From the NCBI GenBank assembly GCA_045863335.1, contig BTVY01000003.1, positions 204,120 to 222,906 of the forward strand: 18,787 nucleotides of DNA, read 5' to 3'. Below are positions 1-18,579 of the stretch, piece by piece. Each line of letters begins with the position of its first letter. Position 1 is the stretch's first letter. The position numbers and the translations under genes were made by a program. This stretch comes from Candidatus Hydrogenedentota bacterium (lineage in GTDB: Bacteria; Hydrogenedentota; Hydrogenedentia; Hydrogenedentales; SLHB01). The notes under the pieces are model-generated. The model was given only the letters and a program-made list of their open reading frames with translations. It was not told the origin of the DNA and searched no databases.

Positions 1-104
1 GAGGCTGGAGAATCCCACACCGATCTGCACGGACCTCCACGGACGGACACGGACCGGGACCGCCGCGTAATCCGTCATCCTCGCGGACGCGGGGATCCAT
101 CTTC
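1..104 (+). repeat. Composite repeat, truncated at window edge: GAGGCTGGAG + ~10-bp-period CACGGAC units + CGTC-tagged palindromic repeat (72-104)
   Basis: 72-104 = ccgtcatcctcgcggacgcggggatccatcttc. Same module order as 629-740 (+) and 6683-6778 (-). Confidence 0.85.
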
Positions 105-608: not shown

Positions 609-849
609 AAGGCTGGAGACCGGAGGCGGGAGGCTGGAGGATTTCACACCTGCACGGACGGGCACGGCCCGCAAGGGCCGCCCAATCCGTCATCCTCTGT
701 CACCCTCGCGAACGCGGGGGGAACGCGGGGATCCATCTTTCTCTCCAGTCTTCGGACTCCGGTCTCCAGTCTTTCTTCCAATCCGCAATCCGAAATCCGC
801 AGTCCGCAATTCTTCCTCCTCCAGCCTCCGGTCTCCAGGCTCCAGCCTT
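609..849. repeat. Mosaic intergenic element: 33-bp heptamer-built inverted arms enclosing CACGGAC units, a doubled CGTC repeat (687-740) and a TCCGCAA-heptamer block (774-815)
   Basis: 609-641 vs 817-849 match 29/33 as inverted repeats. 774-815 is 41/42 identical to the reverse complement of 6565-6606. Confidence 0.85.
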
Positions 850-2891: not shown

Positions 2892-3260
2892 ATGAAAGTA
2901 CCGCAAGGCGGCACGCAAATGTGGTGTCCGGAATGCGAGTCAGTGCAAGTCTGCGCGGCAGTTTCGCTCTCACGGCTCGGCTACGAGTCAGGACAGCGGT
3001 GGTACAAGAGCGACCACCCCGACATCAACTGGTTTCGCCGGGGTCGCGTGTGTCAAAACTGTGGCTGTGAGTTCGTGACCGCTGAGTTGAACGAGAACTT
3101 CTTGGAGGAACTTGTCGAATTGCGTGTCGCGCTTACTGATGTCAAGTCAAATGCCGAGCAGTACATTCTGGATTCAGACAAAGCTTCGACGACACTCAAA
3201 CAGCTTTCTCAGTCTTTGAAGATACTGAAATCGCTTAGGCTGTATAAAGATGCAAGGTAG
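2892..3260 (+). CDS. Zn-ribbon protein with C-terminal helical/coiled-coil region (122 aa)
   Basis: CPEC...RRGRVCQNCGCEFVTAE resembles the NrdR N-terminal ribbon, but no ATP-cone is recognisable. ATG at 2892 follows a GGGAG-containing tract. Confidence 0.75.
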   Translation: MKVPQGGTQMWCPECESVQVCAAVSLSRLGYESGQRWYKSDHPDINWFRRGRVCQNCGCEFVTAELNENFLEELVELRVALTDVKSNAEQYILDSDKASTTLKQLSQSLKILKSLRLYKDAR

Positions 3261-3376
3261 CCAGTAGTTTCTGTCCTGGGCAACACACGCCAGGCAATGC
3301 CAGGAAAGGGATCAGACTTGAAGGAGCGATTCGAAACGTTGACGGCCCATCTGGCAGACAAGCGAGGAATCGTTCA

Positions 3377-4312
3377 ATGCGGACCATTCTCATTCTCTTA
3401 GCTACAATCTGCTGCCCAGTAGTGTCATTGAGTGACTCTATTCGATTGGAAGATGGAACCCTCGATGATGTGTACATTTCCGAAAGTGGCACAATGTACA
3501 TTATTTGTTTTCCAGAGGATGGTAGTACGAAGAGCATCTCCAAATCGGCAGTTAATCCCGACCAAGTCATGTTTTCAGATGACCAGAACGAACGTGAGCG
3601 CTTGAAGTCGCGGTGGCTGAAATCCAGAGAAGAGATTGTCGCCGAGAAAGAGCGTCAAGAAGAACTTGAACGACTGCGCCGGGAAAGGCTTGAGAGGCAG
3701 GCTATTGAGCGAGAATCTGCCGATATGCATAAGCGCGAGATCGAGAGGCTCAAGGAGCGTGAGAAAAAAGAGGCAGTGGAAGCTGAGAAACGTAGAGCGG
3801 AAGAAGAGCAGATTTTGGCGACGCAGGCTGAGCAACACGAAAAGGACAAACGGCTAGCCCGCTTGGCCGTTTTCGCGAATCAGCTACCGATCCAACAGGT
3901 ACGGACCGATCAGCGGGCCTTTATCGGGAAGACTTTCTCGTTCTTAGCGGCCGTCGAGGTAAGTTCGTATTATAACTACGGCTGGGCGGATGCCCAGGCT
4001 TCTCACCATGCGTTTCAGTTAACGTGCCTCGGAAGAGACGCGAGAGACATCGGGACGGCATACGTCTATATGAAACGCTCTGAAAAGAGCGAAGCCTTGC
4101 GTCGAGTGGTTCTGAGTAGCTCCGATCCCAACGACACGGTTTTCATTTGTGGGCTTCACTTCCCGGCCAACAGGTTCGAAGATAGCATGGATTTACACGC
4201 TCAATTAGTCGATTACATCAGTTTGGAAGACTTCGAGCGACTCATCAACGAAGTCAAGGAGGATGGAAGTCTCGTTTACCTCGAAGGCGTTATAGATAGA
4301 CTCCGAGAGTAA
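3377..4312 (+). CDS. Exported hypothetical protein with E/R/K-rich coiled coil (311 aa)
   Basis: GAGGA RBS; signal peptide MRTILILLATICCPVVSLS; long charged helical middle; globular C-terminal domain. Confidence 0.8.
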   Translation: MRTILILLATICCPVVSLSDSIRLEDGTLDDVYISESGTMYIICFPEDGSTKSISKSAVNPDQVMFSDDQNERERLKSRWLKSREEIVAEKERQEELERLRRERLERQAIERESADMHKREIERLKEREKKEAVEAEKRRAEEEQILATQAEQHEKDKRLARLAVFANQLPIQQVRTDQRAFIGKTFSFLAAVEVSSYYNYGWADAQASHHAFQLTCLGRDARDIGTAYVYMKRSEKSEALRRVVLSSSDPNDTVFICGLHFPANRFEDSMDLHAQLVDYISLEDFERLINEVKEDGSLVYLEGVIDRLRE

Positions 4313-4511
4313 CCTGGTAGTCGGAGCGTACGAAAGCTTCACTGCTTCATTCTGCAACAATGCGCCGTTCCATTCCCAATCAGAAGCCTGCCGTGAAGTC
4401 AGGAATTTGAGACCGCAGAATCGCTTTGCGTATGCATTCAAGTTGCTGCAAAAAGATGACTTGAGTCAGGGCTGTAAGAAACAGCCTTGATCGTCCTTGA
4501 TTCTGTTGCCT

Positions 4512-4528
4512 TTGGCACACCCCTTGCA
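4512..4528 (+). promoter_or_regulatory. sigma54 (RpoN) -24/-12 promoter upstream of dnaK
   Basis: TTGGCAC-ACCCC-TTGCA with exact GG-N10-GC spacing (GG 4514-4515, GC 4526-4527). Confidence 0.75.
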
Positions 4529-4639
4529 TTTCCCTTTCCCGACGGGCGTGGACTGCCCGTGAAACTACGCAGAAATCCTGTCCGCCGCGCGGCCCCGTTT
4601 AGGCTGCGCTGGTGTGATTGGGAAGGAGGTTTGGTTGAA

Positions 4640-6562
4640 ATGGGTAAGGTAATTGGAATTGACCTGGGCACGACGAATTCGTGTGTGGCGGTCATGGAAG
4701 GCGGGGAGCCGGAGGTGATTGCCAACACGGAGGGCAACCGGACGACGCCGTCGGTGGTGGCGTTCACGAAGGACGGGGAACGGTTGGTGGGGGCCGCGGC
4801 GAAGCGGCAGGCCATCACGAACCCGGCCAACACGGTGTTCTCCATCAAGCGGTTTATGGGCCGTCGCCACGGCGAGGTGTCGGCGGAAGAGAAGCTGGTG
4901 CCGTACAAGGTCACCGGCGCGAAGGACGGCGACTGCCAGATCGAAGTGCAGGGCAAGACGCACCGTCCGCCGGAGATTTCCGCGATGATCCTGCAGAAGA
5001 TGAAGGAGACGGCGGAGTCGTATCTCGGCGAGAAGGTGACGCAGGCGGTCATCACGGTGCCCGCGTATTTCAACGATGCGCAACGCCAGGCGACGAAGGA
5101 CGCGGGGAAGATCGCGGGGCTGGAAGTGCTCCGGATCATCAACGAGCCCACGGCGGCGGCGTTGGCCTACGGGTTGGACAAGAAGAAGAACGAGAAGATC
5201 GCGGTGTACGACCTTGGCGGCGGCACCTTCGACATCTCGATCCTGGCCATCGGCGATGACAGCTTCGAAGTGTTGAGCACCAACGGAGACACACACCTCG
5301 GCGGTGACGACTTCGACCAGCGGATCATCGATTGGCTGGCGGATACCTTCAAGAAAGAGCAGGGCATCGACCTGCGCAAGGATCCGATGGCGCTCCAGCG
5401 CTTGAAGGAAGCGGCCGAGAAGGCCAAGTGCGAACTGTCGAGCAGCATGCAGACCGACGTGAACCTGCCGTTCATCACGGCCGACGCGTCGGGTCCGAAG
5501 CACCTGAACGTGAACCTCACGCGGGCCAAGCTCGAACAGCTCTGCGAAGACCTGCTCCAGCGGACGAAGAATCCGTGCCTGCGCGCGCTGGAAGATGCGG
5601 GCGTGAAAGCGTCGGATGTTGACGAGGTCATTCTCGTCGGTGGTATGACGCGCATGCCGGCGGTCGGTGCCATCGTAAAAGACCTGTTCGGCAAAGAGCC
5701 GCACCGGGGCGTGAACCCGGACGAAGTCGTTGCCGTGGGCGCGGCGATTCAGGCGGGCGTGTTGTCCGGCGATGTGAAAGATGTGCTCCTGCTGGACGTG
5801 ACGCCGTTGTCGCTGGGTATCGAGACCCTCGGCGGTGTGACGACGAAGCTCATCGAGCGGAACACGACGATCCCGGTGACGAAGCGGCAGGTCTTCTCGA
5901 CGGCCGCGGACAACCAGACGGCGGTGACGGTTGTGGTACTCCAGGGTGAGCGTGAGATGGCGCGCGACAACCGCGTGCTGGGACGCTTCAACCTGGAAGG
6001 CATTCCGCCTGCGCCGCGGGGGCTGCCGCAGATCGAGGTCGCCTTCGACATCGACGCGAACGGCATCGTCCACGTGTCCGCGAAGGACCTCGGCACAGGC
6101 AAGGAACAGAAGATCCGCATCGAATCGTCGAGCGGCCTGTCGGAAGCCGACATCGACCGCATGGTGAAGGACGCGGAGTCCCACGCCGAGGAAGACAAGA
6201 AGCGGCGTAAGGAAATCGAGGTGCGCAATAACGCGGACGCGTTGCTCTACAGCACCGAGAAGACCTTGAACGAACACGGCGACAAGGTGAGCGCGGAGGA
6301 CAAGGCGAACATCGAGTCGGCGTTGAACGAGCTGCGCGAAGCGCTGAAGGGCGACGATGTCAGCCGCATCGAATCGGCGACGGAGAAGGTGACGACGGCG
6401 TCGCACAAGCTGGCGGAGGCCATGTATCAGCAGGCCAACGCGCAGCAGGCGCAGCCAGGACCGGAGACGGTTCACGAGCCGCAGGGCGACGCGGGCGCGT
6501 ATGACGCGGACTTCACCGTCGTGGATGACGAGAAGAAGAAGGACGACGGTCACGCGGCGTAG
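4640..6562 (+). CDS. dnaK: Molecular chaperone DnaK (Hsp70), 640 aa
   Basis: [30 protein letters not shown], linker [27 protein letters not shown] at 4623-4630 places the start at ATG 4640. Confidence 0.99.
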
Positions 6563-6564
6563 TT

Positions 6565-6803
6565 GAAGAATTGCGGACTGCGGATTTTGGATTGCGGATT
6601 GGAAGAGGGGTCGGAGGCTGGAGGAAGAGCTTCGGTCTCCGGTCTCGCGGAGAACGGACGCAGCGACCGCTCCGTGCGGACTGAAGATGGGTCCCCGCCT
6701 GCGCGGGGATGACGGTTCGGGCGGCAGTTGCGGTCCGTGACAGTCCGTGCAGGTCCGTGTGAATTACTCCGGCCTCCGGACTACAGACTCCAGACTACAG
6801 ACT
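6565..6803. repeat. Mosaic intergenic element between dnaK and dnaJ: TTGCGGA heptamers, CGTC repeat (6683-6715, -), GTCCGTG units, TCCAGAC-type heptamers
   Basis: Same modules in the same order as 609-815 read on the opposite strand. Confidence 0.85.
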
Positions 6804-6826
6804 GAACATCGCGAAAGGTCTCAACC

Positions 6827-8020
6827 ATGGCAACGGTACAACAGAACGATCTCTATGAAATCCTCGGCATTTCCAAGGACGCGCCGCAGGAGGAGATCCG
6901 CCGTGCCTATTTGAAGCTGGCGAAGCAGTATCATCCAGATAAGACGGGCGGTGATAAGGAAGCGGAAGACAAGTTGAAAGAGATCAACGCCGCGTACGAC
7001 ACGCTGAAGAGTCCAGAGAAGCGCAAGAAGTACGACGAGGAGCGCGAGGCCCGCTCCGCTTTTGGCGGTTTTGGTAGCGGCGGATTCTCCGGGAACTACC
7101 AGGACTTCTCCGGCGCGGGCGGATTCGGCGGGTTCGAAGACCTGTTTTCCACCATGTTCGGCCAGGGCGGTGCGCATGCGACGCGTCGTCCTGCCGTTCG
7201 GCCCGGCAACGACCTCGAGATGGCGGTGCAGGTCGACCTCCATGACGTAGCCAACGGCGCGAAGAAGACGTTGCGCTTCAAACGCTGGGATCGCTGCACG
7301 GAATGCAATGGAAGCGGCGCGGAACCCGGCACGCAACCGCAGACCTGTCCCGACTGCCACGGCTCCGGCATGGTGACGCACACCAAAGGCGCGTTCAGCA
7401 TGTCGCGGACCTGTCCGAAGTGTCAGGGGCAAGGCACGTTCATCGGCGTGCCATGCAAAACATGCGCAGGACGTGGCCGTCAAAAGACGGACCGCACGGT
7501 GCAAGTGACGATTCCGCAAGGCGTCGAGACGGGCACGCGGTTACGCGTTCCACGTGAAGGCGAAGCGGGCGATCCCGGCGCGCCGAACGGCGACCTGTAC
7601 GTCCACATCGACGTGCGCAAACATGAACTGTTCGAGCGTGATGGCGCGGACCTGATTTGCGAAGTCCCGATTTCGTTTCCGCAGGCGACGCTCGGTGCGA
7701 CGGTGCTAGTGCCGACGCTCACCGGCAAGGCCAACCTTACCGTGCCCGAAGGCACCCAGTCGGGGGCGATGCTGCGGATGAAGGGGCTTGGATTGCCGCG
7801 ACTTGGCGGCGGCGGCAAGGGCGATCAGTACATCCGCATCAATGTGGAAGTGCCTAAACGCCTGAACGGCGAGCAGCGCGAGATCATCGAGAAACTCTAC
7901 GGCATCGACAATCCCGAAGGCTACCCACAACGCCGGAAGTTCGAAGAACTCGTCAGCCGCTACGCGTCGACCATTCTATGGGCGGCCGGTCTTGGGGCGC
8001 TGGCTACGTGGTTGGCATAG
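6827..8020 (+). CDS. dnaJ: Class A DnaJ co-chaperone with hydrophobic C-terminal extension (397 aa)
   Basis: J-domain HPD, G/F-rich region, four CxxCxGxG repeats (CTECNGSG, CPDCHGSG, CPKCQGQG, CKTCAGRG), C-terminal substrate-binding domains. Confidence 0.97.
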   Translation: MATVQQNDLYEILGISKDAPQEEIRRAYLKLAKQYHPDKTGGDKEAEDKLKEINAAYDTLKSPEKRKKYDEEREARSAFGGFGSGGFSGNYQDFSGAGGFGGFEDLFSTMFGQGGAHATRRPAVRPGNDLEMAVQVDLHDVANGAKKTLRFKRWDRCTECNGSGAEPGTQPQTCPDCHGSGMVTHTKGAFSMSRTCPKCQGQGTFIGVPCKTCAGRGRQKTDRTVQVTIPQGVETGTRLRVPREGEAGDPGAPNGDLYVHIDVRKHELFERDGADLICEVPISFPQATLGATVLVPTLTGKANLTVPEGTQSGAMLRMKGLGLPRLGGGGKGDQYIRINVEVPKRLNGEQREIIEKLYGIDNPEGYPQRRKFEELVSRYASTILWAAGLGALATWLA

Positions 8021-12499: not shown

Positions 12500-14599
12500 A
12501 TGCCTTCGATTCGATTCGTGATGCTGGCGACGCTGTGTGTGACGACCCTCCACGCCGCTGAGCGATTGCCATTGCCGCGGTCTGACGGCCAAACCTTGCA
12601 TGTGGACTTCGAGCAGTACGCCGACGGTTGGGTGGGGCCCGTGAACGCGGGGGTACGTTGGCTCGGCGATCCGTTTACGGATATCAAGCAGAACGTGGTT
12701 GATGTCTTGCGTGAGCCTGATGCCGCATTTGCCGGCGAACGGTGCGCGTATGTGTTTACGAACGTTCCCGATGAACGGGGCCGGGTTATGTTTCAGCGGG
12801 CGTATGACGCGCCGGAGTTTGAATACGAAGTGATTGAGTTTGTTTTCCGTCCCGCGCGCGAGGGCGCTGCCGATTTGAATAAATTTGAGATCTGGACCGG
12901 ACTTGGATACTCGTCCGGGAAAGTGGGGATTCAACTCATCGCGAATGGCGATGTGGCGTCGGGTGCTTATGTCGTGGACGTGGTTTCGGTAGAACGGCAC
13001 GAAAAGGTTTTGACGGATCTCGCGCAGACGCAATGGATGCATTTCGTGCTCCGTCGCGACCGCGCGGCGAAGACCGTTGACCTGTGGGCCGGGCCGCCGG
13101 ACTCGGAAGTGTTCATAGGCACCTATCCCGATCTCGATCCCGAGCGGGCTACGGGCCGCGCGGAAGTCGGGGACACCTCCAGCGAAACGGTCATCGGTTC
13201 GGGGTACTGGGACGACATTCGTATCGGCGCGCCGCTTGCAATGGGCGGCGAGATCAGCCCCGCGGAGACCATGCGCGACGTTTCCAGAGAGGTGCCGGAG
13301 ATTGCGTATCCGATTGTCGTCGACGACACGAAGCAGCTATTCGTGGATGACGTGCTGATCGAGTCCATGGACGGACTGGAGCGGACCTTCCACTCCGTCC
13401 AGAAGCATCCCGACAATCCACTCCTTGTTCCCGAAACGGCGTGGGAAACGGGCGGCACCTGGTATGTGCCCTACAACGTGCTCTGGCAGGAGCCGGGGAA
13501 GACGTTGCGCACGTGGTACGGCGCATACCGTCGTTCCGCGGACAAGTTGACGTACACCTGCGTGGCCGATTCCACCGACGGCATTCATTGGAACCGGTTA
13601 TCGCTCGGCGTTTTCGACTTCGAGGGGTCTACCGACAACAACATCATCTGGGCCGGTCGCGCGATCAAGGTCAACTACGATCTCCAAGATCCCGATCCGG
13701 CGCGGCGCTACAAAGGCATGATGCGGAGCGACGGGTTTACAGCCATGTATTCGCCGGACGGGCTGGACTGGTCGATCAGCGAGGAACCCGCGATCCAGCA
13801 GTGCTACGACGCGACCTCGTTCCATTGGAATCCGGTCGAGAACAAGTGGATCTCGTCAGTGAAGATCTGGCACGACGGCAAACGAGCGCGTGGTTACGCC
13901 GAGAGCACCGATTTCGACCACTGGACCGACACCTACCTCATGCTCAAGGCCGACGAGCGCGACCACCCTGCGGACCAGACCTACTCCATGTGGGTCAGCC
14001 ACTACGAAAGCGTGTTCATCGGCTTATTAAAGATCTTTCACGTGGCGACCGACCGGTGCGACGTGCAACTCGCGTTCAGCCGCAACGCGAAACAGTGGGA
14101 ACGCCCCTGGCGCGAGCCGTTTATCGACTGCTCACCGACGAAAGGCGACTACGACTACGGCAACCTCGATCCCGTCGCCGATCCTATCCCCATGGGCGAC
14201 GAACTTTGGATCTACTACGGCGGCCGCAGCCTCGAACATTACGAACCCCCAACCGATACGAACGGATCGCTCTGTCTCGCCACGCTTCGCCTGGACGGCT
14301 TCGCCTCCATCGGCGGCAATGGCACGCTGGTGACCAAGCCGATCGTTCTCGAAGGTGACGCCCTTTACATGAACGCCGACGCGAAAGGCGGGGAGATTCG
14401 CGTGGAGATACTGGACGCCGAGAGTGGGAATCCAATAGAGAAACTTGGCGAGACTGACTGCCTCCCAATTCGCACAGACTCAGTTCGCCACGCCATAGAA
14501 TGGAATGAGAGCGAAGGTATCGATTCTGTGCGCGATCGGCCCGTCCGATTCCGCTTCGATGTCAAGAACGCTCACCTCTACGCAATTTGGATGGAGTAG
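12500..14599 (+). CDS. Secreted protein: N-terminal beta-sandwich-like domain + five-bladed beta-propeller glycosidase-like domain + C-terminal beta-sandwich (699 aa)
   Basis: GAGAGG RBS; signal peptide; QLFVDD, KHPDNPLL, Asp-box-like S.DG..W repeats, LRLDGFAS, NADA..G...VE..D. Confidence 0.88.
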   Translation: MPSIRFVMLATLCVTTLHAAERLPLPRSDGQTLHVDFEQYADGWVGPVNAGVRWLGDPFTDIKQNVVDVLREPDAAFAGERCAYVFTNVPDERGRVMFQRAYDAPEFEYEVIEFVFRPAREGAADLNKFEIWTGLGYSSGKVGIQLIANGDVASGAYVVDVVSVERHEKVLTDLAQTQWMHFVLRRDRAAKTVDLWAGPPDSEVFIGTYPDLDPERATGRAEVGDTSSETVIGSGYWDDIRIGAPLAMGGEISPAETMRDVSREVPEIAYPIVVDDTKQLFVDDVLIESMDGLERTFHSVQKHPDNPLLVPETAWETGGTWYVPYNVLWQEPGKTLRTWYGAYRRSADKLTYTCVADSTDGIHWNRLSLGVFDFEGSTDNNIIWAGRAIKVNYDLQDPDPARRYKGMMRSDGFTAMYSPDGLDWSISEEPAIQQCYDATSFHWNPVENKWISSVKIWHDGKRARGYAESTDFDHWTDTYLMLKADERDHPADQTYSMWVSHYESVFIGLLKIFHVATDRCDVQLAFSRNAKQWERPWREPFIDCSPTKGDYDYGNLDPVADPIPMGDELWIYYGGRSLEHYEPPTDTNGSLCLATLRLDGFASIGGNGTLVTKPIVLEGDALYMNADAKGGEIRVEILDAESGNPIEKLGETDCLPIRTDSVRHAIEWNESEGIDSVRDRPVRFRFDVKNAHLYAIWME

Positions 14600-14707: not shown

Positions 14708-16177
14708 TCAGTGTTTGGAATCGTGGATTTGGAAACCATACAGGGTGCTGTTATCCAGAACGAATCGAATGCCCACGGGGCGCCCTTGTGCCAAGTCGCC
14801 CAGCGATCGCTCGGTGTCGCCATCCCGCCAAACGACCCGGTAGCGTAGTGAATCTTGTCGGATGAGGTGCGAGGAATCGCGTCCCGCCCCTTGGATAACG
14901 TTGCCTTCGGCATCGACGAGTTCGACCGCAAGCCCGCTCTCGGCGACATCCGCGTTGATGACGAGTTCGTTTCCTTCGAACGAGAGACAGTGCGTCTCCA
15001 GCACGGCGTTCGTCGCGCCTTCCTGGACCCGCAGGCCGACGAACCGGTCCTCCGGCAGCGTCGCGAGGCCGATGCCCATCTCGCCCCAGCCTTCGCCGTG
15101 GCGGGTGCTGACGCCGGTATAGTAGATCCAGACCTTGCCGTCGCGGCGGAACATAGTTGTGCCGGGAAACACGCGGCCCGCATCCCAGGTGCCGGGCGTG
15201 GGAACCAGGAACGGCGCTCGGCCCGCGACACGTTCCCAGTTGCGGCCGTCGCGGCTCACGACAAGCTGCGTGTCCATGTGACCTTCGCTGTTGTTGCCCT
15301 CGACTTCGTCGAGATGCAGCAACCAGAGGATTCCGATCAGCACATCGCCGTAGGGCGTCACGGAGATGCCGTAGGGTTGGGACCAGGGGTAACCGTCTTC
15401 TTCGTCCGTCGTGAGGACCGTCTCCTTGGGGGTCCAATCGACGAAATCCTTGCTCACGGAAAGGCCGACGCCCCGCATCACGGCGGGCCAATCGGGATCG
15501 GGTACCTGCGCACGCACGTAGGCCAAGTATTCGCCGTTCCACCTGACCACGCAGGTGCTTGTGTCGTTCTTGCCGACCGCGTCGCGCCAATTGCGGATGG
15601 TCCACGTCAACCCATCCGGCGACTCGCCGACCGACGCGCCGCCCGCGCCTTTGTAGCGCTTTGAAGGGTCCGGGTCGTTCGGCGTCGGGAGCACGCAGAA
15701 GCCGTGCGTGCCTTCGATGATGACGTTGTGCTTTGCGTGACGCCCGAAGGGCTCGCGGCCCACCAACGGTTTCGTCCAGTGCAGACCGTCAACCGATTCC
15801 GCGTAGCAGGTGTAGTACTCCGCGGTCTTGGGGTGCTCTGGATTGTCCGGGATGCCGTCCTTGAATTCATTTGCGAGGTACCAGCAGCGGAACTGCTGCC
15901 GCGATTCGTCGTAGAGCACGGTTCCGTAGATATCCAGGATGCGTTTCTCCCACGGGTGCTCGGGAACGATGACGGGATTGGCCGGGTGCTTTTCCGGTTG
16001 TACCATCACGCGTTTCAGGTTCTGCAAGTCGCGGATGAGATAATCGTCGAGGAAGAGTTGCGGATTGCCGGAGATGGCGATTGGGGAATCGTCTGCCTGT
16101 GCCATCGTGAAAGCCGAGGCGGCCACGATTACGAGGATGACTACAATCCATGCAGTTCGTTTCGCGCTCACGGCCAC
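14708..16177 (-). CDS. Secreted five-bladed beta-propeller glycosidase-like protein (~489 aa), same family as 12500-14599
   Basis: QLFLDD, KHPANPVI, AESVDGLHW, SRDGRNW, IYYTG, NADV. Start moved to GTG 16177 (GGAGG 8 nt upstream, signal peptide follows); the longer ORF only reads through a repeat. Confidence 0.88.
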   Translation of the reverse strand: MAVSAKRTAWIVVILVIVAASAFTMAQADDSPIAISGNPQLFLDDYLIRDLQNLKRVMVQPEKHPANPVIVPEHPWEKRILDIYGTVLYDESRQQFRCWYLANEFKDGIPDNPEHPKTAEYYTCYAESVDGLHWTKPLVGREPFGRHAKHNVIIEGTHGFCVLPTPNDPDPSKRYKGAGGASVGESPDGLTWTIRNWRDAVGKNDTSTCVVRWNGEYLAYVRAQVPDPDWPAVMRGVGLSVSKDFVDWTPKETVLTTDEEDGYPWSQPYGISVTPYGDVLIGILWLLHLDEVEGNNSEGHMDTQLVVSRDGRNWERVAGRAPFLVPTPGTWDAGRVFPGTTMFRRDGKVWIYYTGVSTRHGEGWGEMGIGLATLPEDRFVGLRVQEGATNAVLETHCLSFEGNELVINADVAESGLAVELVDAEGNVIQGAGRDSSHLIRQDSLRYRVVWRDGDTERSLGDLAQGRPVGIRFVLDNSTLYGFQIHDSKH

Positions 16178-16198
16178 CGCGCATTCCTCCAATTTTTT

Positions 16199-16400
16199 GA
16201 AGATGGGTCCCCGCGTTCGCGAGGATGACGGATTGGGTACGTGTGGGGTCTCTCGTTTCAACGTGAGTGCGTTCGTCATTGTATTGTCCTACCGCTCGTT
16301 GTCGAATAACTGCTTTCTACGTTGCGGACTACGCAAGGATAAGCCCGTACCCGCACACCCTCCCAAGCCGTCATCCTCGCGAAAGCGGGGACCCATCTTC
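16199..16400. repeat. 202-bp REP doublet (REPIN-like): CGTC repeat (-) 16199-16231, spacer, CGTC repeat (+) 16368-16400
   Basis: gaagatgggtccccgcgttcgcgaggatgacgg ... ccgtcatcctcgcgaaagcggggacccatcttc; spacer homologous to that of 16908-17110. Confidence 0.92.
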
Positions 16401-16692
16401 AAAGTAGATCGTCGTACAGGTCCCGCCACTGTGAGTTTTCTTGTTCAATGAGTTCAATCTTCCAAGCACGTTTCCACTTCTTCAGAGCTTTTTCGCGATC
16501 GATCGCGTCTTGCATGGTGCCAAGGAACTCGTAGTATACGAGGTGGTGAACGGCGTACTTCGAGGTGAATCCGCTAAACGAGCCGATCTTATGTTGCCAG
16601 ACACGCGTCTTGAGATCGCTGGTCACGCCCACGTAGAGGGTGCCGTTGGGTTTGCTGGCGAGAATGTACACTGCGGGTCGACGCTCGGTCAT
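16399..16692 (-). CDS. Stand-alone GIY-YIG nuclease, Ssn (SsnA-like site-specific ssDNA nuclease) type, 97 aa
   Basis: AVYILAS..NGTLYVGVTSDL..RVWQHK...GFTSKY....LVYYE......AIDREK.LKKWKRAWKI.LIE..N..W.DLY; abutted on both sides by palindromic repeats. Confidence 0.92.
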   Translation of the reverse strand: MTERRPAVYILASKPNGTLYVGVTSDLKTRVWQHKIGSFSGFTSKYAVHHLVYYEFLGTMQDAIDREKALKKWKRAWKIELIEQENSQWRDLYDDLL

Positions 16693-16697
16693 TGGGT

Positions 16698-16907
16698 TAA
16701 GATGGGTCCCCGCGTTCGCGAGGATGACGGTGTGGGAGTGTGTGGGGTTTTACGTGTCAATGTGTGTGCGATCATCGTTGTGGCGTCCTAGCGGTTGTTG
16801 CGGAAGATGGTTCCCCGCGTTCGCGAGGATGACGGTGTGGGTGCGTGTGAGGTTTTTCGTGTCAATGTGTGTGCGATCATCGTTGTGGCGTCCTAGCGGT
16901 TGTTGCG
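16698..16907 (-). repeat. Two 105-bp tandem units (CGTC repeat + 72-nt half spacer)
   Basis: Repeats start at 16698, 16803 and 16908 (period 105). The two 72-nt spacers are near-identical and homologous to the first part of the doublet spacer. Confidence 0.92.
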
Positions 16908-17110
16908 GAAGATGGTTCCCCGCGTTCGCGAGGATGACGGTTTGGGTGCGTGTGGGGTTGTTCGTTTCATTCTGAGTGCATTTGTCCTTGTATCGTCCTA
17001 CCCGTTCATCGCGGTTTTATCTTGCTTCACGCGGCAAACTGCGCATGGATAAACCCATACCTGCACATCGGCCCGCGCCGTCATCCTCGCGAACGCGGGG
17101 ACCCATCATT
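16908..17110. repeat. 203-bp REP doublet (REPIN-like): CGTC repeat (-) 16908-16940, spacer, CGTC repeat (+) 17078-17110
   Basis: Diverged direct copy of 16199-16400. Confidence 0.92.
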
Positions 17111-17229
17111 GTATGCACTCGGCATGGCTTCGTTTCATCGCGTGCGCAATCGCATGTCTATTCAAGACGATTTGCGCCCCTCGACTGTTATACCATGCGT
17201 CCTGGCAATCGTATCACGGGAGCGCAACT

Positions 17230-18579
17230 ATGGACATCGCGGCGTTGATTATCCTTGGGCTAACATCCGTACTTAGCGGCGCGGGCTTCGAGTTGTCCGC
17301 CGAAGTCCCTCTCCACGATTTTGGTGGTATCCCCTTTGTCTACGACATCGACGGCAAACCCGGCGCGGAGATCCTGTGGTTGCAATCGCCGGGAATCTTT
17401 CATAGCCGTGTCTTCGACGATGGCCCGTGGAAAGGCCGCATCCGGGAAGACGAGCGCGTACACTTCTGCTTGACGGCCACGTCGCCCTCCGGCGAAGTCC
17501 TCTGGCAGATCGGCACACCGTGGACCGGCGACCGGCCTTTCCTTACGCACTGCGGTGAGCGGGGACTCGACTGCGCGGATATCGACGGCGACGGTGCGCC
17601 GGAGATCGTCTGTGTGCGAAACGATGACATTCTCGTGATCGACGGACGCACGGGAACCATCGAGAAGACCGTTACCGCCCCCGCCGACAACGCGCAGATT
17701 GTTGGGCTGGCGCATACGGGCTTCGGGTCGGTCGATTGGACCGTTCTCGTCAAGAATTCCGAATCCGCGTATGCGCCCCACGAGTACGCGAATCCTTGCT
17801 GGTTCTATGATGGCGAATTGAATCTCATCAAGACCGCTGACTACCGCGGCGCCGGGCATGCGCCGGTGATCCACGACATCGACGGCGACAGGCTCGACGA
17901 GTTCCTCATCGGGTTCAACGCGATCGACAACAATCTGAATACGCTGTGGACGTACCGCACGGTCCCGGATGAAGCGTGGGACGCCGCGGAAATGCATGTG
18001 GACACGATCGCGGTTGGCGAGGTTGGGGGACGCCACGCGGTCGCGCTCGCGGCGAGCAACATGGAGTACCTGCTCGACGCGCAAACGGGTGAATTGATCT
18101 GGAGCTTCGAAGGGACACACCCGCAGGTCTGCGCGATTGGCCATTTCCTGCCGGGCGAAACCGAGGCGCAGGTCGTCGTGCACAACAAGCGCGCCGACCT
18201 TCAGCTCTTTGACAGCAAGGGCCACGAAGTCTGGCGAATGACGCCGCCCGAAAACTTCCCGCTGGGCAAGGCTGAAGCGTGCAAACAAGCCTTCCACACC
18301 TTCGAACCGTTGCAGATTCTACGCGGCGGGGGGGAGAAGAATACTGACCTCATCATCTTCTCCGACGCGGGTTGGCCCTACGTCATCGGCAGCGACGGTG
18401 CGCGCTCGCTCGAGTTCCCCCACACGTCGAACGTAGCACAGGACTGGGGCGAAGTCCCCGGCCGTCCCGATGACTACGGCTACGGATTCTATGTCCGTAT
18501 CCACGACTTCAACGGCGACGGCAAAGACGAGGTCATGATCAACGACCGCCGTTTCGCCTGGTTCTACCGCCTAAAATAA
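17230..18579 (+). CDS. Exported FG-GAP/VCBS-like beta-propeller protein (~449 aa), reminiscent of PL11-type folds
   Basis: Repeated DxDGDG motifs (DIDGKPG, DIDGDGAPEI, DIDGDRLDE, DFNGDGKDEV). ATG 17230 follows GGGAG and precedes a hydrophobic N-terminus. Confidence 0.85.
   Translation: MDIAALIILGLTSVLSGAGFELSAEVPLHDFGGIPFVYDIDGKPGAEILWLQSPGIFHSRVFDDGPWKGRIREDERVHFCLTATSPSGEVLWQIGTPWTGDRPFLTHCGERGLDCADIDGDGAPEIVCVRNDDILVIDGRTGTIEKTVTAPADNAQIVGLAHTGFGSVDWTVLVKNSESAYAPHEYANPCWFYDGELNLIKTADYRGAGHAPVIHDIDGDRLDEFLIGFNAIDNNLNTLWTYRTVPDEAWDAAEMHVDTIAVGEVGGRHAVALAASNMEYLLDAQTGELIWSFEGTHPQVCAIGHFLPGETEAQVVVHNKRADLQLFDSKGHEVWRMTPPENFPLGKAEACKQAFHTFEPLQILRGGGEKNTDLIIFSDAGWPYVIGSDGARSLEFPHTSNVAQDWGEVPGRPDDYGYGFYVRIHDFNGDGKDEVMINDRRFAWFYRLK

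Follow-up and report, generated by a model that had tools for sequence, protein, structure and literature searches.

The Ssn family of GIY-YIG nucleases was described by Chenal et al. (2025, Nat Commun, PMC11893778), who assayed four homologues and reported that each binds and cuts its own flanking motif as single-stranded DNA (ssDNA), not as RNA. Meningococcal SsnA is a 94-aa single-domain GIY-YIG protein, and its Y6A, Y17A, and E64A mutants retain binding but lose cleavage. According to the same paper, the assayed enzymes bind the hairpin in ssDNA only, their cleavage needs nucleotides upstream of the palindrome, and their binding needs a C after it; the oligonucleotide lengths put the cut 3 nt 5' of CGTC. 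In Neisseria meningitidis, Ssn trims transforming ssDNA that bears the Ssn recognition motif (SRM) and lowers its integration. The Neisseria motif, NTS, is defined there as CGTCATTCCCGCGMAVGCGGGAATCYRG, and the SRM pattern is given as HGTCWY N0-2 YYVSBRH N0-5 WNVSBRG N0-2 RNCYNB. A class of repetitive extragenic palindromes (REPs) called CGTC-1 was described by Di Nocera, De Gregorio and Rocco (BMC Genomics 2013, PMC3733652) as having a CGTC tag, an 8-bp stem, a 4-nt loop, and a CCA tail and as occurring mostly in head-to-head dimers; it includes Neisseria dRS3 and Rickettsia RPE-6. Here we analyze an 18,787-nt stretch of DNA (58% G+C), referred to below as the window, from a Candidatus Hydrogenedentota bacterium (GenBank assembly GCA_045863335.1, contig BTVY01000003.1, positions 204,120 to 222,906 of the forward strand). 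It contains a gene for a 97-aa GIY-YIG protein between inverted copies of a 33-nt repeat. The locus is very probably an SRM-ssn-SRM cassette of the published Ssn family.

A preliminary description of this DNA, made from its letters alone, had reported the 97-aa GIY-YIG gene between inverted 33-nt repeats and had called the enzyme Ssn-type, and both statements held. Pfam GIY-YIG (PF01541) is matched over residues 7 to 79 of the 97-aa protein (E 3.1e-15; 56.6 bits against a cutoff of 22.6), and the Pfam search matched no other family in it. Chenal et al. delimited the Ssn family by tblastn homology to Neisseria SsnA at E < 1e-10 and equated it with CDD entry cd10448 (GIY-YIG_unchar_3). When we searched an N. 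gonorrhoeae chromosome with the 97-aa protein by tblastn, the E value was 2e-29. In BLASTP against the gonococcal 94-aa open reading frame (ORF), 55 of 93 residues are identical (59%) without gaps (E 1e-40), and Y9, Y20, and E67 of our protein align with Y6, Y17, and E64. The gonococcal ORF is flanked by NTS-type hairpins; from its length, these three residues, and the NTS flanks we infer that it is the SsnA orthologue. Supplementary Data 4 of PMC11893778 flags Kaustia mangrovi, Kaistia terrae, Sphingomonas faeni, Dyella mobilis, and Pseudomonas guguanensis as having an ssnA homolog with >60% identity and cd10448 YES, and the homologues from those five species are 58 to 71% identical to the 97-aa protein. 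The reading of the window gene, ssn, as encoding an Ssn-type GIY-YIG nuclease is supported by these comparisons.

A homology search scored 8,000 candidates, of which at least 7,992 reached E 1e-5 or lower. Among the matches listed, self excluded, the closest homologues are 72 to 73% identical and come from JGI only, and the named ones are from Alphaproteobacteria, Chloroflexota, and others. The ssn ORF aligns over its full length and without gaps to its homologues, and where 32 homologues were aligned, 31 columns are invariant and the window protein retains every one, including Y9, Y20, R30, H34, E67, and N86. AlphaFold models the protein as one compact domain (pLDDT 90.4). The top matches of a PDB fold search with this model were all GIY-YIG domains (UPF0213 proteins, Slx1, and the UvrC N-terminal domain); the best was weak (E 1.3e-3) and they were generic GIY-YIG domains only. 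No solved Ssn structure was found in the PDB by sequence or fold search.

Other assignments of the protein were also considered. It is not a homing endonuclease of the I-TevI GIY-YIG type, as the only NCBIfam match, to the group I intron endonuclease model TIGR01453 over residues 7 to 41, was below threshold (21.4 bits against a cutoff of 56.05) and there is no second, DNA-binding domain. An enzyme of the REP-associated tyrosine transposase (RAYT) kind, with the HUH/Y1 chemistry of IS200/IS605-type transposases, is ruled out by the GIY-YIG assignment and the lack of any other Pfam match. The UPF0213/YhbQ-type proteins BH0048 and EF2693 were marginal by sequence (E 0.042 and 0.11) with fold template-modeling (TM) scores of 0.54 to 0.59, far below the match to Neisseria SsnA. 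A phage collection held no homologue at E 1e-10. A tblastn search of a plasmid collection matched 32 records, all at <60% identity, with 31 of the 32 typed as nonmobilizable and several being chromosomes or megareplicons; among these 32 matches there was no sign of a small-plasmid vehicle for ssn. Two PLSDB records, NZ_CP119140.1 and NZ_CP119142.1, are N. gonorrhoeae sequences of 2.17 Mb each which are filed as plasmids but are evidently chromosomes.

The gene, the repeats on its two sides, and the distal repeats of the window are as follows.

16399..16692 (stop codon included), minus strand: ssn, predicted gene for a 97-aa single-domain GIY-YIG nuclease (ORF translation, Pfam, BLASTP, AlphaFold)
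16698..16730, minus strand (the gene's strand): upstream SRM, CGTC head away from the gene, ending 5 nt before the ATG at 16692
16368..16400, plus strand (opposite to the gene): downstream SRM, also the right arm of doublet A, overlapping the TGA stop codon (16399-16401) by 2 nt
6683..6715, minus strand: distal SRM in the dnaK-dnaJ spacer, fully Watson-Crick stem, inside a mosaic of ~250 nt at 6555-6830
687..740, plus strand: disrupted ninth SRM with a 21-nt internal partial duplication, inside the mosaic at 600-860
72..104, plus strand: distal SRM with loop GGAC and an 8-bp stem, inside a partial mosaic cut by the window start

The 33-nt repeat is present in eight copies at up to 3 mismatches, starting at 72 (plus), 6683 (minus), 16199 (minus), 16368 (plus), 16698 (minus), 16803 (minus), 16908 (minus), and 17078 (plus); 200 dinucleotide shuffles of the window gave zero matches. 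Six copies had been placed near the gene and three others at 72, 687, and 6683, one flanking copy overlapping the stop codon by 2 nt and the other ending 5 nt before the ATG, and we recovered this arrangement in full, with the copy at 687 disrupted. The loops vary as had been stated: GAAC in the copies at 16199, 16698, 16803, 16908, 17078, and 687, GAAA at 16368, GGAC at 72, and GCAG at 6683. One stem position is a T.G pair in 8 of the 9 copies and C-G in the copy at 6683. The published SRM pattern fits seven of the nine copies, whereas 200 shuffles gave 0.2 matches on average and never more than 3. Six of the copies that fit it strictly are found within 500 nt of ssn, including one directly at each flank.

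The claim that the locus represents a new pair of Ssn enzyme and recognition motif did not survive the comparison. Besides fitting the SRM pattern, the repeat belongs by its sequence to the CGTC-1 type of REP, and it has only two non-loop differences from the proteobacterial SRMs that flank ssn in an Acetobacteraceae metagenome-assembled genome (MAG; locus L013) and in Ectopseudomonas guguanensis (L045). Judged from these sequences, it is a minor SRM variant and not a new motif. An SRM from a Poriferihabitaceae MAG (L002, 4826-4853) has T.G at the same stem position, so the wobble pair is not unique to the source genome.

We then compared the locus with its relatives. One alignment scan of GTDB representative genomes yielded 79 loci in ten named phyla, with 57 to 69% identity over the best segment. 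Flanking repeats are common in these relatives: a strict SRM lies within 500 nt of ssn in 66 of the 79, and on both sides in 35. Up to 500 nt from ssn there are 1.76 SRMs per kb, versus 0.08 per kb in the remaining 597 kb, a 22-fold difference. Fifteen loci have no strict SRM within 200 nt; all of them show units resembling CGTC-hairpin-CCAG within 300 nt in a relaxed scan that had no chance control. The positions of the repeats recur as well. In 24/79 loci the start codon has a same-strand SRM no more than 40 nt away, in 20/79 the stop codon has one on the opposite strand at up to 10 nt, and 11/79 show both. The nearest upstream SRM (up to 200 nt away) shares the strand of the gene in 34 of 46 cases, and the nearest downstream SRM has the opposite orientation in 37 of 53. 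Because the layout of gene plus hairpin recurs in the relatives, the flanking repeat is, by analogy with them, almost certainly the recognition hairpin of the window nuclease.

SRM distance and protein distance are correlated across the 60 genes that have a 28-nt SRM (59 of the 79 loci plus the window), with a Mantel r of 0.30 that none of 2,000 permutations equaled. We do not read this as coevolution of specificity, because joint inheritance of the cassette predicts the same correlation. A further arrangement was seen on a Thermodesulfobacteriota chromosome (OZ245366.1; L026 and L028), where two identical Ssn proteins are encoded in long arrays in which two hairpin types alternate on opposite strands, one with the stem TTCCTGC and a 4-nt loop and the other with the stem TTCCGTG and a 5-nt loop; the strict pattern misses both.

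The repeats also allowed us to examine the hairpin itself. The covariation set contained 124 SRMs, namely 116 of the 128 flank SRMs (the other 12 are not 28 nt long and were left out) and 8 from the window; 73 are distinct. Their consensus is CGTCATTCCCGCGAAnGCGGGAATCCAG. In the 8-bp helix, 96.6% of cells are paired, versus 20 to 51% in controls with the helix slid along the alignment. Double-sided changes occur in five of the eight stem pairs; among the 73 distinct rows, C-G to G-C is seen 26 times and U-A to C-G 21 times. The observed covariation was reached by none of 500 shuffles, a result to be read with the caveat that the SRMs were picked by a pattern that itself favors pairing. These data support a hairpin maintained by compensatory changes. 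Selection on the hairpin had been proposed before from the variable loops of the window copies. That conclusion stands on the covariation in the larger set; the argument from loops within the window is weak alone.

The homology between relatives in different contexts has sharp ends. When non-syntenic pairs of loci were compared by blastn over the gene, 139 of the 405 left ends of homology and 163 of the 474 right ends fell no more than 5 nt from the base with which the CGTC head begins. Homology extended more than 5 nt past the head at only 12 left and 8 right ends, and it ended inside the gene at 254 left and 303 right ends. Such ends are consistent with a discrete SRM-gene-SRM unit, about 360 nt long, which in the window would span 16369-16729. 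Sharp ends would also be seen if conservation merely stops at the SRM, for example because it is a conserved binding site. The cassette behaves like a heritable unit of its own and sits in unrelated genomic contexts across the ten named phyla. Collinear flanks were found in two Sphingomonas, three Thiobacillus, a group of Xanthomonadales-type genomes, and others, and this collinearity in related genomes indicates stable vertical inheritance at that scale. The protein tree (98 columns) has 6 of 76 inner branches starred as well supported and a terminal branch of 0.47 for the window protein. It requires 22 phylum changes, where the minimum is 9 and the shuffled mean is 27.1. Because the tree is largely unresolved, we claim no specific transfers. 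A Bipolaricaulota MAG and a delta-proteobacterial MAG have in common a 345-nt cassette that is 80% identical. In one Alphaproteobacteria MAG (L005 and L009), two contigs carry copies, 98.9% identical, of a 755-nt segment that takes in the gene with 171 nt of upstream and 289 nt of downstream DNA; it is a recent duplication of the cassette with its flanking hairpins.

A 1.6-kb insertion beside an SRM in one relative (L018, 5418-7049) was considered as an SRM-bounded cassette and rejected; it is an ordinary insertion sequence (IS) with its own terminal inverted repeats and a 454-aa transposase-like ORF, and it is not in the collinear locus L013. Searches of the 79 loci with the window proteins (tblastn) matched only DnaK and DnaJ (L017 and L048), with no homologue of the genes flanking 16199-17110, and blastn of the window against all 79 loci gave only a dnaK match to L017. 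In the latter, a Candidatus Uhrbacteria MAG (2941-6388), an ssn cassette at 4980-5294 lies between dnaK and dnaJ. The window has a solo SRM, within a mosaic of ~250 nt, in its own dnaK-dnaJ spacer (6563-6826). The occurrence of a cassette in one and an SRM in the other of the same spacer may be a coincidence or may reflect a shared preferred site.

Within the window, the 33-mer is embedded in larger composites, which are 105-nt tandem units, doublets of ~203 nt, and a mosaic of ~250 nt. Those next to the gene are the following.

16699..17013, no strand: tandem array of three 105-nt units, each headed by a minus-strand SRM (16698-16730, 16803-16835, and 16908-16940)
16196..16403, no strand: doublet A, head-to-head SRMs (16199-16231, minus, and 16368-16400, plus) with a spacer of ~136 nt and 53-nt arms that are 89% complementary
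16905..17113, no strand: doublet B, head-to-head SRMs (16908-16940, minus, and 17078-17110, plus), homologous to doublet A

Relative to the reference unit 16699-16803, the second and third tandem units are 95% (16804-16908) and 77% (16909-17013) identical. Doublets A and B, of ~203 nt, are homologous over their whole length in the same orientation. As ssDNA, both fold far more stably than their shuffles, doublet A at -70.9 kcal/mol (z -12.7) and doublet B at -52.6 kcal/mol (z -6.1). All three distal SRMs are held by the mosaic of ~250 nt, at 600-860, at 6555-6830 as the reverse complement, and at 1-125 as a partial copy. The mosaic consists of simple G/C-rich repeats of the GAGGCTGGAG and CACGGAC types, a central SRM, and a 59-nt block (757-815 and 6565-6623, 86% complementary). 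Locally, the SRM seems to have multiplied through duplication and recombination of whole blocks, and not by the 33-mer moving on its own. A promoter scan of 16000-17400 gave one promoter-like site compared with a shuffle mean of 0.9, which is not above chance. That sigma-70-like site, at 16305-16278 on the minus strand, has TCGACA, 16 nt, and TACAAT (10/12 matches) and lies in doublet A, facing the gene at 14708-16171.

If the window enzyme behaves like the four assayed homologues, it would bind the folded hairpin in ssDNA only, reading the CGTC tag and the C following the stem, and would hydrolyze the strand about 3 nt 5' of CGTC on whichever strand has the motif in sense. By the same analogy, it would act wherever SRM-bearing DNA is single-stranded, as in incoming transforming or conjugating DNA and in replication or repair intermediates. 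The likeliest consequence would be trimming of SRM-marked ssDNA and modulated recombination at SRM-marked loci, as in N. meningitidis. Several observations count against this picture. The copies at 72 and 687 (2 of 9) fail the strict published pattern. Predicted hairpin stability is modest, at -4.9 to -5.9 kcal/mol (z -0.8 to -1.9) for seven of the eight folded copies. The copy at 6683, with C-G, reaches -9.2 kcal/mol (z -3.55), and the lower stability of the others can be put down to the T.G stem position. With the palindrome changed but a hairpin kept, the meningococcal enzyme lost its activity (PMC11893778), so that cognate recognition of the T.G and CCCAT variant is an assumption. The Neisseria phenotype might not transfer to a Hydrogenedentota host. 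The same paper lists several Wolbachia genomes with ~190 to 260 SRMs and without an ssnA homologue, which implies that repeats can persist without the enzyme.

The assignment of the locus to the Ssn family has to be set against three other readings. One is that Ssn creates new copies of the CGTC repeat and of its own cassette in the way that RAYTs are associated with REP doublets (REPINs), for example by nicking SRM hairpins in ssDNA and thereby starting copy-in repair or template switching, a kind of homing into or between SRM sites. We regard this as unlikely, albeit the least so of the three. The framing of ssn by inverted SRMs is indeed that of an IS or a RAYT gene, and the ~203-nt head-to-head doublets resemble REPINs. 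In unrelated contexts the cassette homology stops at the CGTC heads, near the expected cleavage; the same ends would, however, be seen with a conserved binding site. Phylum labels are heavily mixed on the protein tree and the 345-nt cassette is 80% identical in Bipolaricaulota and delta-proteobacterial MAGs, but the tree is largely unresolved and binning errors in MAGs could mimic transfer. The collinear loci in related genera resemble the vertical, single-copy behavior of RAYTs. Inverted SRMs place one motif in cleavable sense on each strand and thus do not allow single-strand excision of the IS200/IS605 kind. GIY-YIG enzymes hydrolyze DNA without a covalent intermediate. To our knowledge, no strand-transfer chemistry exists for them, and the hydrolytic chemistry counts against a mobilizing role. 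The SRMs of the window are copied within larger blocks, for which slippage or recombination suffices and no dedicated enzyme is needed. From the literature, the reading draws on the statement that no transposase was found for CGTC REPs (PMC3733652) and on the expansion hypothesis raised by Chenal et al., and the SRM-rich Wolbachia without ssnA in a table of the latter paper (PMC11893778) stand against it. A bolder form would make Ssn the missing enzyme of the CGTC-tagged REP superfamily, with nicked extruded hairpins seeding repair or template-switch copying of SRM-bounded blocks, its own cassette included; we hold this to be slightly less probable still. The cassette ends at CGTC heads, the doublets and tandem units, and the solo dnaK-dnaJ SRM as compared with the Uhrbacteria cassette are compatible with it. 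If true, it would mean a hydrolytic, homing-like expansion of repeats which is distinct from HUH transposition.

Two readings remain. In one, ssn is an inactive remnant and only the repeats matter now. The 5 nt separating the upstream SRM and the ATG have no Shine-Dalgarno-like sequence, the closest homologue among the matches listed is merely 73% identical, and the terminal branch of 0.47 on the protein tree could be that of a decaying gene. An ungapped full-length ORF with all 31 invariant columns kept and a confident AlphaFold model speak against decay, which we consider very unlikely. In the other, generic REP-type hairpins, serving as RNA stabilizers, terminators, or recombination hot spots, accumulated passively in permissive intergenic DNA with no specific relation to the nuclease. 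SRMs do occur far from ssn, as in the dnaK-dnaJ spacer, and many REPs have been argued to be transcribed and to act as RNA elements (Di Nocera et al. 2013, PMC3733652). Against this are the 22-fold enrichment of SRMs within 500 nt of ssn in 79 relatives from ten named phyla, the fixed placement of SRMs at the start and stop of ssn, and the four homologues that cut their own flanking motif as ssDNA, not RNA (PMC11893778). A terminator scan of 16000-17400 likewise gave no intrinsic-terminator-like site, compared with a shuffle mean of 1.9. Passive accumulation is the least credible of the readings considered here, with a very low probability.

Much of the system is already known. The enzyme family and the motif are published, and so is the RAYT/REP analogy: the discussion of PMC11893778 compares NTS-ssnA-NTS to an IS and to RAYTs, REPs, and bacterial interspersed mosaic elements (BIMEs) and raises the possibility that such an element drives repeat expansion. 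The novelty seen in the preliminary description was overstated. What is new is the Hydrogenedentota host, the T.G stem variant, the embedding of SRMs in larger composite repeats, and the strong covariation of the hairpin. In the literature searched, Chenal et al. 2025 alone connects GIY-YIG enzymes with these repeats, and no paper ties the 2013 statement that CGTC REPs have no dedicated enzyme to Ssn. Chenal et al. (PMC11893778) do not cite Di Nocera et al.; the link between CGTC REPs and Ssn is implicit because dRS3 belongs to both descriptions.

As a probable Ssn/SRM pair, clean and fully intact and with a slightly shifted motif (T.G and CCCAT), the locus comes from a candidate phylum of which few genomes have been studied. 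It could add an enzyme/site pair to the ssDNA tool kit proposed in PMC11893778 and could serve as a test of how far Ssn tolerates a stem mismatch. The composite repeats, together with loci that are collinear rather than scattered, are material for asking whether these nucleases only read repeats or multiply them too.

Other ORFs of the window were examined as well. Its DnaK is 98% identical to a protein from Candidatus Hydrogenedentes, and the named matches listed, with genomes at 94 to 98% DnaK identity, all belong to that phylum, which places the host in Hydrogenedentota. Two small paralogous ORFs of 84 and 93 aa, at 173-427 and 873-1154 on the minus strand, are 36 to 37% identical and each adjoin mosaic repeats. 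Two large paralogous ORFs, at 12500-14599 (plus strand) and 14708-16171 (minus strand), are divergently oriented and share 32% identity over 437 aa. A Pfam search of the small ORFs and the large unknown ORFs of the window returned nothing above threshold. The ORF at 4565-6553 on the minus strand matches Pfam NAD-GH (PF10712) at E 5e-182, yet it is wholly antisense to the HSP70 match (E 1.4e-276) in dnaK and was rejected as a shadow ORF.

Compared with known systems, the locus is closest to the Ssn family of Chenal et al. 2025. It shares the single GIY-YIG domain of ~94 to 97 aa, the retained catalytic Tyr/Tyr/Glu, CGTC hairpins on both flanks, and repeats clustered around the gene with others elsewhere in intergenic DNA. 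It differs in its Hydrogenedentota host (no Hydrogenedent- or Planctomycet- name occurs in the supplementary tables searched), in the T.G stem position of 8/9 window copies, and in a tail of CCCAT(CTTC) instead of TCCAG. The SRM heads face the gene in the gonococcal locus but point away from it here and in the majority of the 79 relatives. With CGTC-1 REPs it shares the 5' CGTC tag, a 7- to 8-bp stem, a 4-nt loop, a short CCA-type tail, and head-to-head dimers, with TGTC variants in the relatives; unlike in the window, no dedicated enzyme was reported for those REPs, and the window doublets have a long spacer of ~136 nt. CGTC repeats were listed in PMC3733652 for Proteobacteria, Chlorobi, Bacteroidetes, Spirochaetes, and Thermotogae, and Hydrogenedentota is not among these five phyla; the same paper mentions mosaic intergenic regions. 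SRMs of the window alternate with other repeated blocks, which is also the organization of neisserial intergenic mosaic elements. The latter are arrays of dRS3-bounded repeat units, and their interleaved blocks show no sequence relationship to those found here, in a comparison made from one 18.8-kb window. Like REPIN-RAYT and REP/BIME systems, the locus has one small nuclease gene framed by inverted hairpin repeats, doublets that can fold into long hairpins, and a collinear position in related genomes; unlike them, its predicted enzyme is a hydrolytic GIY-YIG nuclease and not an HUH/Y1 transposase, and its tag is CGTC, not GTAG.

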